This document shows positions 1-64,000 of a stretch of 64,000 nt of DNA, one piece after another. Under the pieces are notes generated by a model. It did not search any database and was not told where the DNA came from. It worked only from the letters and a program-made list of their open reading frames with translations. The DNA is from Escherichia phage ECO103 4-12-1, in sequence record OR844650. The stretch is one strand, 5' to 3'. The number at the start of each line of letters is the position of its first letter. Positions within the stretch are counted from its first letter, which is position 1. Position numbers and translations under genes: made by a program.

Positions 1-269
1 TCAAAATCCATTATTGTAATCTCGGTTCTATTGAAACTACCTTTACGTCTGTACGTTAGTAAACGCTCTTTATGTCCATCAAGCTGGAAATCAAAATATG
101 TTGTTGCATTATAATCACTATCATCACTGATAGGCTTTGAAAGATCCAGATTATACGTAGTTCCAATCGCAAAAAAGTATCCACCATCTTCCAATGGAAT
201 ATCTTTGTCGCTTAGATTGAAATCTGTTTCATCACCTAGTATATCAAATATCTTGATACTTAGTGACAT
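1..269 (-). CDS. hypothetical protein (partial; 3' end lies beyond window start)
   Basis: Minus-strand ORF with ATG at 269 (alternative ATG at 287) and no in-frame stop before the window edge; translation begins MSLSIKIFDILGDETDF. Confidence 0.4.
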   Translation of the reverse strand, partial: MSLSIKIFDILGDETDFNLSDKDIPLEDGGYFFAIGTTYNLDLSKPISDDSDYNATTYFDFQLDGHKERLLTYRRKGSFNRTEITIMDF

Positions 270-299
270 AAATTCATCAGCTAACATTTCTTTTTTACC

Positions 300-518
300 T
301 TATTTGATAACTCTACAGTAGTACTGAATAATGTAAGGAAATAAAGGATTATTTACGTATGTTGCAAAATTAGCTATTGTAACTTTTTTATAGTACGAAT
401 TATGAATTGTTATAAGAGTGTGGGGGTCTATTGATTCTCTATTAGAGAGTTCAACATAACGCCCACACTTCATATAAGCCTTACCATAATAATCGTAAAT
501 TATCTCGTATTTTTCCAT
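300..518 (-). CDS. hypothetical protein
   Basis: 72-aa ORF; stop of the upstream gene abuts its ATG. Confidence 0.45.
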   Translation of the reverse strand: MEKYEIIYDYYGKAYMKCGRYVELSNRESIDPHTLITIHNSYYKKVTIANFATYVNNPLFPYIIQYYCRVIK

Positions 519-877
519 TTATTCAGGATCTTTATTTTTATCAACTGTGTTGTTTTTATTCAAATCAATTTGCAAAGCCATTGCAGCTTCAGCATTTTCT
601 TCATGTGTGCCATTGAATTTATACCCATTCTTGATGAGATTCACGGTGTAGTACTTATTATAAAGAAATGCCCATACAACCATTGCAATTGTACCCACAA
701 TCCAAAATGACACTGCGTTGAGGATGAAGTAAATTACGAATGCACCGATGAACGTAATAAAGTCACCACGAAACAATGCAGGGAACGGTCCAAAGAATAA
801 TGTTGTCCAAGAAAAACCAAAGAAACCATCTTTGCGTTGTCCTACATTTTCATTTTTTAAAGAAATTGTTTTAGCCA
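519..877 (-). CDS. small membrane protein
   Basis: ORF track 519..923; likely start MAKTISLK at 877 preceded by AGGAG; two hydrophobic helices. Confidence 0.55.
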
Positions 878-888
878 TTTTTAATCTC

Positions 889-1110
889 CTACTTTTTATT
901 TGGGTTTGGTATACAGTACACAAATACTAAATGATTAAAATGTTCTGTATTCGCATACTTTGCTAAGTCGGTTATGAGGAAGTTTGTATCTTTAAATCTG
1001 CCATCATTGTATGTTGTGATTTGAAAACGTAGTTCAGGTGCAAAAATATAATAATAGAATATATCATTTACACACCCAACAGTATGCTTAGCATATCTTT
1101 CAATTTTCAT
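889..1110 (-). CDS. hypothetical protein
   Basis: ORF track 889..1158; likely start MKIERYAKH at 1110 overlapping the stop of the upstream gene (ATGA). Confidence 0.4.
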   Translation of the reverse strand: MKIERYAKHTVGCVNDIFYYYIFAPELRFQITTYNDGRFKDTNFLITDLAKYANTEHFNHLVFVYCIPNPNKK

Positions 1111-1475
1111 GTATGGATAATCTCTTTCACCCCATATTCTTTTATTGCTAATGAGCAAATTTCACATGGTTTAGCCGGAACAGGAATTCCATCTTTACTT
1201 ATCCGTGCAATCAGTAAAGTATGAACATCAGCACGAGCAGCCAGTAAACATGAAATTTCAGCATGAAGAAACTCACCTTGCGGTCGCCCAGCACGAATGG
1301 CGAAACCCTTCTGTACTGGGTGAGTCTGTGTATAAGAATTTGTGCGAGTTGCCAGTACTCTACCTTTTTTATCAAGTGCACGAGCAATAACACGATACCG
1401 TTTGTAATTTCCTACTTGTTCAATAGGTGGCATCTGGCGTAATTCTTCGATTAGTTTCTCCAATTTACTATTCAT
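1107..1475 (-). CDS. small cytidine/dCMP-deaminase-fold zinc-dependent deaminase
   Basis: H-A-E (FLHAEISCL) and P-C-x-x-C (KPCEICSL) zinc-binding motifs of the CDA fold; 122 aa. Confidence 0.6.
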   Translation of the reverse strand: MNSKLEKLIEELRQMPPIEQVGNYKRYRVIARALDKKGRVLATRTNSYTQTHPVQKGFAIRAGRPQGEFLHAEISCLLAARADVHTLLIARISKDGIPVPAKPCEICSLAIKEYGVKEIIHT

Positions 1476-2098
1476 AAGTCTAAGTCTATACCCTTTTCAA
1501 TAGATTTCTCTAGAACCCAAAGTTTACATTCTTCACTCTCCAAATGTATCTTTGCCTCTTTCTGTTGTTCTATTGTACAAGACATTATGAATTCACGCAA
1601 GGCTTCTATCGTATTTTTTAAATTTTTTATATCATCGATGATTTTTTCTTTGGTTTCTTCATCGATTACACATGAACTCCAACTGTGTCGTTCCTCCCAA
1701 ACAGTTTTAGTAGGATTAAAAATTGATGGAGTAGATTTGAATGCATGGATCTTATTAAATGTGTTATCTGCTTCTTGTTGGGTGTAATCACCATATGTGT
1801 TTAGCACATTTTTGTATAATTTATCAATCGCCTCTTCATACGTATCACCACCACAATCCAATTGATAATCATGTGCTTGTACCCATTCGTCGTCTTGCTC
1901 AATATACATTGGTGAAAGAAATTCTACCCAAAATTGAGTCTTTGTATTCAATGCTTTGAAATCTTCAATTCGATTTGTCATTGGACACACATCATGAGGT
2001 TCTATATCAATCCTAGCTGGAACCATATCTTTGTTTATGAATTTAGGATGAGCCAAAATCCACCAGTACTTTTCAGATGTAGTCATAGTAATCTCCAA
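1472..2098 (-). CDS. hypothetical protein
   Basis: 208-aa ORF, no recognisable motif. Confidence 0.5.
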   Translation of the reverse strand: MEITMTTSEKYWWILAHPKFINKDMVPARIDIEPHDVCPMTNRIEDFKALNTKTQFWVEFLSPMYIEQDDEWVQAHDYQLDCGGDTYEEAIDKLYKNVLNTYGDYTQQEADNTFNKIHAFKSTPSIFNPTKTVWEERHSWSSCVIDEETKEKIIDDIKNLKNTIEALREFIMSCTIEQQKEAKIHLESEECKLWVLEKSIEKGIDLDL

Positions 2099-61919: not shown

Positions 61920-62136
61920 AATTCCAATCCCCTATTCCCTCTAACCTTCTAAGATATCTTGCGTAAATTATTTCGAAATATCTGTGCAACGAAATTACGG
62001 ATTGTTCATAATCATCATCCCTGAACATTGTGCATGTAAGAAAATTATTTAAACCGTAATCTAAACTGCACTCCAACTTCTCCTTTGCAACGGCACTATT
62101 ACTTGCACTTTTCATAATAAACCCTTTGTACCGCAT
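61906..62136 (-). CDS. hypothetical small protein
   Basis: 76-aa ORF; a 56-codon ORF (about 62100..62269) overlaps its 5' end in another frame. Confidence 0.4.
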   Translation of the reverse strand: MRYKGFIMKSASNSAVAKEKLECSLDYGLNNFLTCTMFRDDDYEQSVISLHRYFEIIYARYLRRLEGIGDWNYDYV

Positions 62137-62297
62137 TGGTGTACTGTGAACTCAGCACCACCAATAGGTAATCAATATTGTAAGCACGATTTCCTCTTTG
62201 ACTGGCACGACTGGAATAAAGAATATTATCCACATATGTATTGAACTGATCTTCAAATAACTCTTTCATCAGCATTATCCCATCCCATAATCATACA

Positions 62298-62921
62298 TCA
62301 TACATTAACAACTTTATCGATGTAATCTTCTAACATATCAATATATCTGGTATTGGTTCTAACTAAAAGGTATGCAAATCCAGAGAACTCCTGTGTATAA
62401 TGCTTTACAGCGTACATACAACGAAGCTTATCATTGTCATACATTGTACTGTACTGAAACAAACTCTCGTCTGATAGCTCTAATAACGCTTGGGCTTCAC
62501 TTCTCGTGAACTTCATAGGGTCATGTACTGCATCACAAAAACAAACCTGTGTCTCGCTATTGAAACCCTGTGATAGATATATACCTTCACACTCTGAACG
62601 CACCGATACTGCATTATAACTATGTGTTGCCCCCATCATATCTGAACTCAAAACTAAAATCAACCCATTTTTATTTTTAATCAACAAATCTGACTTAAGG
62701 GATTTTATCTCCGTATGGGAAATATCACCAAATCTTCCTGGGACTTCAAACTTATCAACGTTGTATACAATCTTTTGTACTTGCTCTTTTAAACGCTTAA
62801 TTGCACTTCTGTCTTTTTCTAATGTATCTAATAAACTCATTGAACTCATTGTACTTTCCTTACATATTTGTACCGAACAAAACGGAACTTTGAATGCCAT
62901 TAATCGACACTTCATGTACAT
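62298..62921 (-). CDS. FQxS-motif family protein
   Basis: Motif DESLFQYSTMYD; likely start MSSMSLLDTLEK. Confidence 0.55.
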   Translation of the reverse strand: MYMKCRLMAFKVPFCSVQICKESTMSSMSLLDTLEKDRSAIKRLKEQVQKIVYNVDKFEVPGRFGDISHTEIKSLKSDLLIKNKNGLILVLSSDMMGATHSYNAVSVRSECEGIYLSQGFNSETQVCFCDAVHDPMKFTRSEAQALLELSDESLFQYSTMYDNDKLRCMYAVKHYTQEFSGFAYLLVRTNTRYIDMLEDYIDKVVNV

Positions 62922-63204
62922 ATATATTTTGTCTGAATACCTGAAGCAATTGAACTAAACTTTGTTGCATAATAATATGCATATGTACATTATCAAAGGC
63001 CGTTTCGTATTGGAATCGTGCCGCTTCATCTTCTATGAAATTCGGAACTTGGACTGGATTCTCAAAATTTGTCCTTGTACTGAACTGTACATCATTGTCC
63101 TGTACCTTAATACCATATGAATTATCATTGTTATCAACTACATCAAATTCAATTAAACTACCATCTTTACTGACGTTTACTATATAAACTGAAAATCGAC
63201 TCAT
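62860..63204 (-). CDS. FQxS-motif family protein (diverged)
   Basis: Motif DEAARFQYETAFD. Confidence 0.45.
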   Translation of the reverse strand: MSRFSVYIVNVSKDGSLIEFDVVDNNDNSYGIKVQDNDVQFSTRTNFENPVQVPNFIEDEAARFQYETAFDNVHMHIIMQQSLVQLLQVFRQNIYVHEVSINGIQSSVLFGTNM

Positions 63205-63716
63205 AAACCTATTTCCTCTAAATCTTTGACAAATGTATCATAATCCGATAATGACAAAAATATGTCTGTACTGATGTTTTGACGTAATGTATTAAACAAA
63301 TTATGTACCTGTAATAAATCAGGTGCATAAATCAGGGATTGCTGGAAATACGATTCTTCTGTATCTAATATATCCCTGCACTCAATTTCACGAACTCGTT
63401 GGTATATTGAATTTAATAATACATTTTCATCTTTGAGCATTGGAAGGTATCGGATGTACATGTTCTCCATCAACTCATCTTGGATTGAACCCCTGAACTG
63501 CAACACGTATTCAAAACACATCACTACATCTTGTAGGTAATTGGCACTGTACTGATTACTATACACGATTTTATGACAACTGAACTCGGAATCATTTCTG
63601 AACCAATTGTTACCCTCTTTCCTGTACTTATGACTAAGCTTCCCATCCTCCAACGCTCGAATGAACTTCATAATGTTAATTGCAAAATCATATGAATGAT
63701 GCTTGTGTTGATGCAT
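63201..63716 (-). CDS. FQxS-motif family protein
   Basis: Motif EESYFQQSLIYA. Confidence 0.55.
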   Translation of the reverse strand: MHQHKHHSYDFAINIMKFIRALEDGKLSHKYRKEGNNWFRNDSEFSCHKIVYSNQYSANYLQDVVMCFEYVLQFRGSIQDELMENMYIRYLPMLKDENVLLNSIYQRVREIECRDILDTEESYFQQSLIYAPDLLQVHNLFNTLRQNISTDIFLSLSDYDTFVKDLEEIGL

Positions 63717-63724
63717 TTTTTACC

Positions 63725-63919
63725 TCAATTCTGTCCGAAAAAATAACCAAAATGTTTAAAGCAAGAAAGCATTACTATGTTCATCACTCTATCATCAAAT
63801 TCATCTTGTGTTTCTGCACATAATGTTTCACAGATATTCAAATGTAATAATTCAAGCTGGAAACTGTCGGTGAACCAATCAAACTTACGGTATTTTTGTT
63901 TAACATCAACTGTAAGCAT
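63725..63919 (-). CDS. hypothetical protein (possible family member)
   Basis: 64-aa ORF with FTDSFQLELLHL; the array appears to continue past the window end. Confidence 0.4.
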   Translation of the reverse strand: MLTVDVKQKYRKFDWFTDSFQLELLHLNICETLCAETQDEFDDRVMNIVMLSCFKHFGYFFGQN

Positions 63920-64000
63920 ACTATATATCCAACCCTTTTACAACATCTACGAAATGTTCAAACACTTCTTTTGAAAAATAACCACCTTCACAAAAAAGCA

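Follow-up and report, generated by a model that had tools for sequence, protein, structure and literature searches.

The 64,000-nt stretch analysed here (the window) belongs to Escherichia phage ECO103 4-12-1 (record OR844650) and is densely and evenly strewn with the palindrome AGTACT. By megablast it was assigned to Asteriusvirus, a genus of Rak2/121Q-like jumbo myoviruses that infect E. coli and have ~350-370-kb genomes; identity was 98.6% to phage G17 (~274-338 kb of G17) as well as to Sharanji and E9.1. The window has 32.9% G+C, is 93% coding and carries 129 of its 131 modelled genes on the minus strand. Recognised genes encode PhoH, Sir2, Nudix and ClpP proteins, dCMP deaminase, DNA ligase, RNA ligase 1, polynucleotide kinase and a Dam-family methyltransferase; the remaining ones are mostly small and hypothetical. 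Features referred to below are collected in Table 1. All comparisons with related phages rest on sampled genome regions.

Table 1. Features of the window and of the related phage G17 (ORF, open reading frame; aa, amino acids; positions without unit refer to the window).
Feature	Position	Strand	Remarks
AGTACT-rich domain	1..61383	.	197 copies, 3.2/kb, 46 as CAGTACTG
Intergenic AGTACT pair, 18 bp apart, followed by a T-run	2105..2128	-	weak terminator-like hairpin, -9.6 kcal/mol, z=-1.75
CapR/DUF723-domain ORF, 261 aa	35539..36324	-	0 AGTACT, 2 GTAC
Dam-family N6-adenine DNA methyltransferase, 173 aa	36321..36842	-	Pfam PF05869, E=6e-32; phrog_111
Paralogous small-gene families including FQxST proteins	50598..61606	-	local AGTACT density 4.7-7.3/kb
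Oriented-variant domain, start	61400..64000	-	0 AGTACT; 20/22 GTAC are TGTAC on the + strand
G17 replication/structural core	120-170 kb		AGTACT 1.5/kb
G17 accessory small-gene regions			AGTACT 3.0-3.4/kb
G17 array of ~70-codon ORFs adjoining the terminal repeat	345.9-350.9 kb		no GTAC enrichment
G17 terminal repeat	351-371 kb		AGTACT 6.5/kb, 129 vs 5.7 expected; CAGTACTG 32; densest in genome

An exact count gave 197 copies of AGTACT in the 64,000 nt (3.08/kb). Base composition predicted 21.4 copies and dinucleotide-preserving shuffles yielded 17.2 ± 4.1 (maximum 27), which corresponds to a 9- to 11-fold excess over an expectation of 17-21. Markov expectations were 37.8 at order 2 and 72.6 at order 3. 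At the maximal order of 4, 167.7 copies were expected; this value is uninformative, as AGTAC and GTACT, the pentamers on which the model rests, are themselves enriched. AGTACT had the highest z-score of all hexamers. The top heptamers were AGTACTG and CAGTACT, and the top octamer was CAGTACTG, with 46 copies compared to 0.6 expected from composition (~75-fold) and 5.1 at order 3. The tetramer GTAC occurred 501 times instead of 190 (2.6-fold). A sequence-only reading of the window had estimated by eye a several-fold over-representation of AGTACT and a 2- to 3-fold enrichment of GTAC. Both estimates were borne out by the counts, as were the sites given as examples at 2543, 7015, 20121 and 45333 and the five sites within 7.0-8.0 kb (7015, 7078, 7555, 7740 and 7858).

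About 95% of the sites are intragenic; nine are intergenic or edge sites. Within genes all three frames are used (82 sites as AGT-ACT, 45 as nAG-TAC-Tnn and 61 as nnA-GTA-CTn), each of them 3-5-fold above expectation, and non-coding DNA contained 8 copies compared to 1.4 expected. Synonymous shuffling with proteins and per-gene codon usage kept constant gave 49.5 ± 5.6 in-gene copies (maximum 64), and codon permutation gave 24.0 ± 4.6, compared to 188 observed. Thus, the k-mer and codon-aware backgrounds that the sequence-only reading had named as its refuting test did not account for AGTACT. Neither the Markov models of orders 0-3 nor shuffling (dinucleotide-preserving or synonymous) nor codon permutation left room for chance.

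The signal is also visible in the encoded proteins. Ser-Thr and Val-Leu dipeptides were over-represented 1.74-fold and 1.60-fold in window proteins; the reversed dipeptides stood at 0.9, so that the skew was confined to the orientation that encodes the site. Ser-Thr was written AGT-ACT in 59% of cases, where codon usage would predict 15%; within AG|TAY|T, Tyr used TAC in 85% (38% elsewhere), and Val before Leu and after A used GTA in 77% (45% elsewhere). These skews therefore point to a pressure on the DNA that is strong enough to bend the amino-acid sequence. Together with the use of all frames, the intergenic excess and the persistence of the signal against both types of codon shuffle, they strongly support the earlier proposal that selection acts on DNA and not on a protein motif.

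Small paralogous genes are numerous in the window, and the Ser-Thr of a conserved FQxST motif is, as had been remarked from the sequence alone, often encoded by AGTACT. Both would be expected if the hexamer were an ordinary by-product, arising from codon usage, from amino-acid composition or from amplified paralogues with a Ser-Thr motif. FQxST contexts, however, supply only ~9-10 of the 197 sites (~5%) and do not explain the enrichment. BLAST families of 8 and 4 genes in the paralogue region of Table 1 hold 28 sites, and all BLAST-defined paralogue families combined hold 37/197. Conserved replication and structural genes of four phage genera carry the signal as well, as do unrelated prophages (see below). 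In view of the shuffles, the frames and these site shares the by-product reading was rejected, and next to no weight is left for it.

The flanks of the window sites mirror each other: 48% have C at -1 and 46% have G at +1. At position -1, G is disfavoured (7% of sites), and farther out a weak A/T preference was found. The extended consensus is not-G/AGTACT/not-C. Among NGTACN palindromes of the window AGTACT alone is enriched; TGTACA is as frequent as expected, and the window has no CGTACG or GGTACC. None of the single-mismatch neighbours of AGTACT is depleted in the window, and nearly all are mildly enriched. Sites are evenly spread (7-20 per 4 kb). Their spacing, which the sequence-only reading had proposed to compare, was more regular than random (coefficient of variation 0.82, p=0.002), with two gaps above 1 kb where 7.9 were expected. 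Per-gene counts were likewise under-dispersed (chi2 91.6 on 130 degrees of freedom). Near gene starts and stops no excess was seen (19 and 22 sites, respectively, vs 24 expected), and the nine intergenic sites had no common extended structure.

Other palindromes are purged from the same DNA. Of the 64 hexamer palindromes 27 are entirely absent from the window, and several others are scarce (observed vs expected: GCGC 0 vs 24, GATC 85 vs 211, GGCC 9 vs 32, TGATCA 12 vs 38, AGATCT 4 vs 19). In a ranking of palindromes by enrichment AGTACT reached 11.5-fold, followed by a palindrome at only 1.85-fold. AGTACT, a classical type II target, is the site of ScaI, and GTAC is that of RsaI; ScaI isoschizomers exist in E. 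coli. In sampled regions of other coliphages AGTACT was avoided: T5 (1 vs 5.6), phi92 (0 vs 5.4), the RB49-like phage kaaroe (0 vs 3.0) and the T4-like phage TH22 (3 vs 7.9), or 4 vs ~22 for the pooled control coliphages. The situation resembles restriction-site avoidance in that AGTACT is a type II target under-represented in the controls and in that the studied phage avoids nearly all other palindromes; for AGTACT itself, however, the sign is reversed, with a 10-fold enrichment. The contrast to normal palindrome avoidance in phages, to which the sequence-only reading had drawn attention, is therefore real and sharper than described, given the 27 missing hexamers and the avoidance of AGTACT by ordinary coliphages. 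A 50-kb sample of E. coli K-12 contained 3 AGTACT compared to 4.9 ± 2.1 expected (0.06/kb, ~50-fold sparser than the phage). Host-driven mutation or a host signature was discarded because E. coli is not enriched, and a general adaptation of AT-rich coliphages was discarded because T5, phi92, RB49-like and T4-like phages avoid the site.

Enrichment extends to the enterobacterial relatives of the phage. AGTACT was found 127 times (9.8 expected) in the Eneladusvirus fHe-Yen9-04, 41 times (3.8) in the Alcyoneusvirus RaK2, 38 times (4.0) in the Mimasvirus GAP32 and 72 times (5.6) in the divergent Asteriusvirus EJP2, where CAGTACTG reached 1.7/kb. The signature is thus common to four enterobacterial jumbo-phage genera at similar density. 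Sampled relatives that infect Pseudomonas (PA5oct, 0 vs 5.2), Xanthomonas (XacN1, 0 vs 3.0) and Agrobacterium (Atu_ph07, 2 vs 1.9) were not enriched. Of the proposal to look for the bias in related phages and in the host, the first part accordingly gave a positive answer for enterobacterial jumbo phages and the second a negative one for the K-12 sample.

IMG/VR was scanned for three AGTACT within short range. Among the matches listed were jumbo phages and small contigs. Contig L024 with the signature is a lambda-like phage with a gpA terminase and a lambda-family portal, and contig L031 encodes a serine recombinase. The L024 terminase retrieved prophages in Phytobacter massiliensis (100% identical), Cedecea, Pluralibacter, Kluyvera, Enterobacter and Citrobacter. 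In the pooled lambda-like prophages (101 kb, 38% G+C) AGTACT was the top hexamer (300 vs 34) and CAGTACTG occurred 45 times compared to 1.6 expected; under synonymous shuffling 254 copies stood against 76.8 ± 8.0. As in the jumbo phages, G at -1 was disfavoured, and GCGC was depleted (4 vs 115). Unlike the jumbo phages, the prophages did not avoid GATC and had half-sites balanced between strands (192 vs 198). A third lineage was represented by contig L025, a T4-like fragment (1-8574) with 27 AGTACT compared to 2.9 expected and a gene order resembling that of kaaroe. The AT-rich prophage family (~37-38% G+C; IMG/VR contigs of ~33 kb) spans six genera of Enterobacteriaceae. Isolated phages include no close relative of this family (terminase at most 36% identical), and for the ORFs of its early region no homologue was found in any isolated phage. 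No gene common to the prophage, T4-like and jumbo lineages was detected apart from short matches (42-158 aa) to the GAP32 lysozyme region and one 48-aa match; a shared gene between prophages and jumbo phages was dismissed on these grounds. The signal is therefore lineage-wide among jumbo phages, convergent in unrelated phages (at least three lineages) and specific to certain phage lineages of Enterobacterales.

Conservation was assessed by alignment to phage ph0011 (86.6% nucleotide identity, 42.7 kb aligned), in which 76 of 125 AGTACT were conserved compared to 59.6 expected (p=0.002). Where the amino acid was the same, TAC was kept in 92% of cases inside sites and 67% outside (p=0.011), and ACT in 85% and 68%, respectively (p=0.020). 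In-site GTA was an exception: it was less conserved and was aligned to GTT in 42% of cases, compared to 18% outside. Across the genus border to Yersinia phage fHe-Yen9-04 (27 orthologue pairs, 48% amino-acid identity) 12 of 50 sites were position-identical, whereas the figure for hexamers generally was 8-9%; where the amino acids were identical, 12 of 15 AGTACT were kept (30% in general). Three quarters of the sites had moved and their number was equal (50 vs 52). In the lambda-like prophages 18 of 31 sites were conserved vs 39%. The AGTACT signal is thus real, is not an effect of protein, codon or paralogue content, is conserved above background and turns over at constant density.

Phage ph0011 is sparser in AGTACT (2.2/kb; window 8023-54435 compared). 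Of 51 window-only sites, 20 differ from ph0011 by a single change, AGTACT/AGTTCT on the coding strand, which is a synonymous GTA/GTT exchange in 13, Thr/Ser in 5 and Tyr/Phe in 2 cases; in any frame the mirror change would be a radical one. We read this interchange as gain or loss of sites by the cheapest route. Polarity was resolved for two of the 20 changes, and both were losses in ph0011. Sequencing artefacts were rejected as a source in view of the 13:5:2 bias towards synonymous and conservative changes (p ~0.006 by hand calculation). In plus-strand core genes of RaK2 (1-18000 of the sampled sequence) AGAACT occurred 16 times and its reverse complement AGTTCT 0 times.

At the scale of a whole genome, 578 AGTACT were counted in 192 kb of G17 (3.0/kb), which extrapolates to ~1,100 per genome. 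Density varies along G17 from the replication and structural core to the terminal repeat (Table 1). In the first 5 kb past the left terminal repeat 7 AGTACT per kb were noted. The array of short ORFs beside the repeat had 0-2 AGTACT and 7-11 GTAC per 2.5 kb; its top k-mers, TGATAGTT and AGTACAGC, resemble paralogue repeats.

The last 2.6 kb of the window carry a non-palindromic variant instead of AGTACT. GTAC is as dense there as elsewhere, and the probability that none of its 22 copies is AGTACT was 9e-6. Twenty of the 22 are TGTAC on the plus strand and thus read (C)AGTACA or nGTACA on the coding (minus) strand, in all three frames. In G17 the domain extends over 335.9-341.5 kb, with 33 TGTACT (2.8 expected), no AGTACT, and no AGTAC on the plus strand (5.3 expected). 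In fEgEco12 (82% identity) it spans eight consecutive 1-kb bins, again with plus-strand AGTAC at 0 (7.4 expected, p=0.0006), and 23 of 42 variant sites are kept (sampled sequence 6000-14000). Over its ~6-8 kb (C)AGTACA occurs on the coding strand at 6-9 per kb, and AGTAC is present on the minus strand in 35-45 copies compared to 6-8 expected. The region was found in 32 Asteriusvirus records, and the idea that the site-free window end is a recent insertion was dropped because of this conservation. Outside the domain non-palindromic half-sites are ~2-fold enriched. They are 1.5-2x commoner on the coding strand, whichever strand this is (window 113 vs 74, EJP2 52 vs 26, RaK2 25 vs 17), with no such bias in G17 core genes (49 vs 49). 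This suggests that selection acts on the half-site (C)AGTAC as read on one strand, and that the palindrome places it on both strands.

We interpret AGTACT, with AGTAC as half-site and CAGTACTG as preferred form, as a signal at the DNA level that is kept by selection and distributed evenly, and as a viral counterpart of the cyanobacterial HIP1 element. The reader and the modification step in this interpretation are hypothetical, as are the binding or recognition site for a phage or host factor and the modification target put forward by the sequence-only reading. A sequence-specific reader of double-stranded DNA would recognise AGTAC on a strand, and the palindrome would offer it a site on both strands. 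A lineage-specific DNA modification would probably cover the sites. The ~1,100 AGTACT per genome are most easily tolerated if shielded, since other palindromes are purged from these genomes and AGTACT itself from ordinary phages of the same hosts. The simplest shield would be such a modification, with a precedent in HIP1 and its methyltransferases (PMC4390886, PMC5861425). The 50-fold density contrast with host DNA (~3/kb vs 0.06/kb) would therefore make a usable "self" tag, by which phage DNA may be separated from host DNA or handled differently during infection, possibly for protection, replication/recombination or packaging. The patchy and convergent distribution resembles that of mobile modification determinants. 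The sole recognisable sequence-specific DNA enzyme in the window is the Dam-family methyltransferase, which scored 92.8 bits against TIGR01712, just below the cutoff of 97.05. It had no relative among solved structures, and an NCBIfam search was likewise uninformative on its specificity; judged from its sequence it is a candidate modifier only.

The probability of this interpretation is put at roughly one in three (0.35), because no methyltransferase family is common to the three motif-rich lineages. Several further observations weigh against it. Homologues of the PF05869 enzyme are widespread (1,796 records). The enzyme family of L025, phrog_3820, is also present in kaaroe as a 61%-identical enzyme, and kaaroe has no AGTACT at all; as the family is in addition not found in Rak2-like phages, it was excluded as the common factor. 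No methyltransferase was detected in the sampled part of the lambda-like prophages (an estimated three quarters), and no shared gene was detectable between the motif-rich lineages. Protection accounts for tolerance of AGTACT, not for its enrichment, and neither symmetric modification nor symmetric binding would predict the strand-specific domain. DNA of fEgEco12 is cut normally by ten enzymes, with ScaI and RsaI not among them (PMC13070987); global hypermodification was discarded on this basis, the ten enzymes being ones that do not test AGTACT. The NPPF methyltransferase g080 of the Yersinia phage was eliminated as a common factor, as it is confined within its clade to that phage. This additional amino-methyltransferase of fHe-Yen9-04 (IIGNPPFG motif; sampled sequence 18716-19561, +) lies beside a DNA ligase gene and has relatives in rV5-like, phi92-like and KIL-like phages. 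A broader version of the tag idea is tentative: in Enterobacterales infections a reader, either phage-borne and exchangeable or host-encoded, would treat AGTAC(T) DNA at ~3/kb as 'phage self'. Unrelated phages would have converged on the tag, or AT-rich prophages would mimic that of jumbo phages to survive or exploit infection, and a functionally distinct part of the genome would be marked by the half-site domain close to the terminal repeat.

A reader supplied by the host, i.e. a DNA-binding protein or enzyme of Enterobacterales on which unrelated phages converged, is unlikely, although it would suit a signature that is shared by phages without a detectable common gene, that occurs in three lineages, two of them with demonstrated hosts in one bacterial order, and that is lacking from the relatives on Pseudomonas, Xanthomonas and Agrobacterium. 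T5, phi92, RB49-like and T4-like coliphages avoid AGTACT in the same hosts, and there is therefore no general benefit of the site in these cells. SlmA, which could be co-opted to block division during a long infection, was considered as such a reader. Its site, GTGAGTACTCAC, has an AGTACT core, and binding depends strongly on G and T in positions 1-2 followed by a purine in position 3; ~50 SlmA-binding sites are present in the whole E. coli chromosome (PMC3020112). Cells infected by Sharanji filament, with DNA spread through the cell (PMC11895373); filamentation has many possible causes. The likeness comprises an identical palindromic 6-bp core, which agrees with the SlmA core AGYRCT (A and G at positions 4 and 5, pyrimidine at 6), filamenting cells, and a host range of the motif-rich phages that matches the bacteria said to have SlmA-type proteins. 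However, ~1,100 AGTACT per phage genome stand against the ~50 SlmA sites of the chromosome, and full SlmA sites numbered 0 in any phage region examined. SlmA-type GTR flanks at AGTACT were 2.5x too few in jumbo phages (18 vs ~45) and amounted to 6/600 in prophages. Position 3 of the SlmA alignment was C/T, usually C, in 73% of window sites, and G at -1 was disfavoured in all phage regions compared (4-10%). SlmA co-option was rejected, since the required GTR/YAC flanks are not present and are under-represented beside phage sites. We know of no other host factor with AGTACT specificity. Somewhat more doubtful is a use of AGTAC as an oriented single-strand signal for a strand-tracking enzyme, such as a primase site, a Chi-like regulator of a helicase-nuclease, a nicking site or a translocase guide, with the palindrome as an economical placement on two strands. 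The conserved 8-kb domain with AGTAC on the minus strand only and the enriched half-sites elsewhere would be explained by it. The even coverage with few long gaps is as a process needing a site within reach would select, and the gene content of these phages includes T4-type primase/helicase, RecD-like and Cas4-like proteins. Outside the domain, however, the symmetric CAGTACTG dominates, which fits a two-fold symmetric reader. The lambda-like prophages lack such replication enzymes in the sampled regions and have balanced half-sites, and active exclusion from one strand is not explained by a signal that is merely unnecessary there.

Biased mutation or repair (very-short-patch-like, or a polymerase quirk) that keeps turning near-sites into functionless AGTACT is improbable. 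The 20 AGTACT/AGTTCT differences from ph0011 and the frequent alignment of in-site GTA to GTT would be in line with it, as would Elhai's model for HIP1, which invokes methylation-dependent mismatch repair (PMC4390886). No one-mismatch neighbour is depleted, however, as a repair substrate should be; sites are retained above background at synonymous positions and are spaced more evenly than random; and the 13:5:2 bias fits gain or loss filtered by selection. Moreover, a lytic jumbo phage with its own replisome and host-copied prophages have the same density, and the host genome does not. Less probable still is an RNA-level signal, in which a protein or nuclease would bind AGUAC(U) in phage messengers to stabilise, mark or regulate the transcripts. 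Nearly all genes lie on one strand, so that every AGTACT is transcribed, half-sites are commoner on the coding strand, and the variant domain retains AGUAC in mRNA. The T at position 6 and the mirror flanks would nevertheless be purposeless in a single-stranded reading, the coding-strand bias is missing from G17 core genes and from prophages, and the palindrome is kept where genes are plus-strand and is enriched in non-coding DNA as well.

HIP1 (GCGATCGC) and the 'alternate HIPs' of cyanobacteria, the comparison made by the preferred reading of AGTACT as a selected DNA-level signal, are described as selection-maintained and methyltransferase-linked elements of debated function (PMC5861425, PMC4390886). 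HIP1 is a short palindrome over-represented ten- to several-hundred-fold in and between genes and in all frames, with conservation above background that indicates selection and with a patchy phylogenetic distribution. AGTACT shares the order-of-magnitude excess (9-11x, and ~75x for CAGTACTG), the occurrence within and between ORFs in all frames independently of a peptide motif, and the conservation above background except at in-site GTA codons. The nesting of core and extension is also alike (GTAC < AGTACT < CAGTACTG compared to GATC < CGATCG < GCGATCGC). AGTACT differs by residing in viruses and not in cellular genomes, by its AT-rich, unrelated sequence and by a surrounding genome that purges other palindromes. 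HIP1 has a link to a cognate methylase; here the methyltransferases PF05869 in jumbo phages and phrog_3820 in L025 are present, and such a link to either of them would be hypothetical. Instead of a cyanobacterial chromosome the carrier is a phage, with under-dispersed spacing and kb-scale domains, and a strand-specific half-site domain is not described for HIP1 in the abstracts of PMC5861425 and PMC4390886.

Chi, KOPS and DUS/USS are short asymmetric words of cellular genomes, evenly spread at roughly one per few hundred bp to few kb. They are kept by selection because the machinery that processes the DNA has to encounter one within a certain distance, and they leave an imprint on codons and peptides. 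AGTACT is similarly short, dense, evenly spread and imprinted on codons and peptides. Those words are asymmetric and orientation-skewed genome-wide, whereas AGTACT is palindromic save in one 8-kb domain. No report of over-representation of AGTACT, CAGTACTG or GTAC in phages was found in the literature, including papers on these phages, in a search that did not cover most subscription journals and REBASE.

Selection-maintained, hyper-abundant palindromes have so far been a cyanobacterial curiosity, represented by HIP1. A viral counterpart would be a more tractable system: a culturable E. coli phage with ~1,100 sites that reshape its proteome, and independent occurrences in prophages and a T4-like phage. 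The excess is the inverse of the textbook rule, by which restriction-type palindromes are purged from phages, and implies a protective modification or a benefit that outweighs the risk of restriction. The signature predicts unusual behaviour of the phage DNA towards ScaI and RsaI. It is also a simple k-mer marker of these lineages in metagenomes. As a constraint of about one site per 300 bp, it would be broken unknowingly by recoding or engineering of jumbo phages that are therapeutic candidates.

A promoter or terminator role of AGTACT was rejected: ~95% of sites are intragenic, there is no positional preference, the site is unlike published motifs, and one weak hairpin only was found. This hairpin (Table 1) forms because the two AGTACT copies are self-complementary and able to pair; it is an isolated case and no general property of the sites. 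Promoter motifs published for Rak2-like phages are RpoD-like, TGAAACG/TATA and ATAAATA (PMC5259590). By eye, some intergenic AGTACT abut sigma-70-like elements on the minus strand (11720-11800 and 27078-27130), e.g. TTGACT...AGTACTATATT at 11749. The PF05869 methyltransferase gene adjoins a cytidylyltransferase gene in G17, ph0011, EJP2 and fHe-Yen9-04. In the window the CapR/DUF723 ORF is an insertion relative to G17, where the cytidylyltransferase-like gene directly adjoins the methyltransferase gene, and it is probably a mobile endonuclease-type insertion. Its lack of AGTACT is consistent with recently arrived DNA that does not bear the signature.

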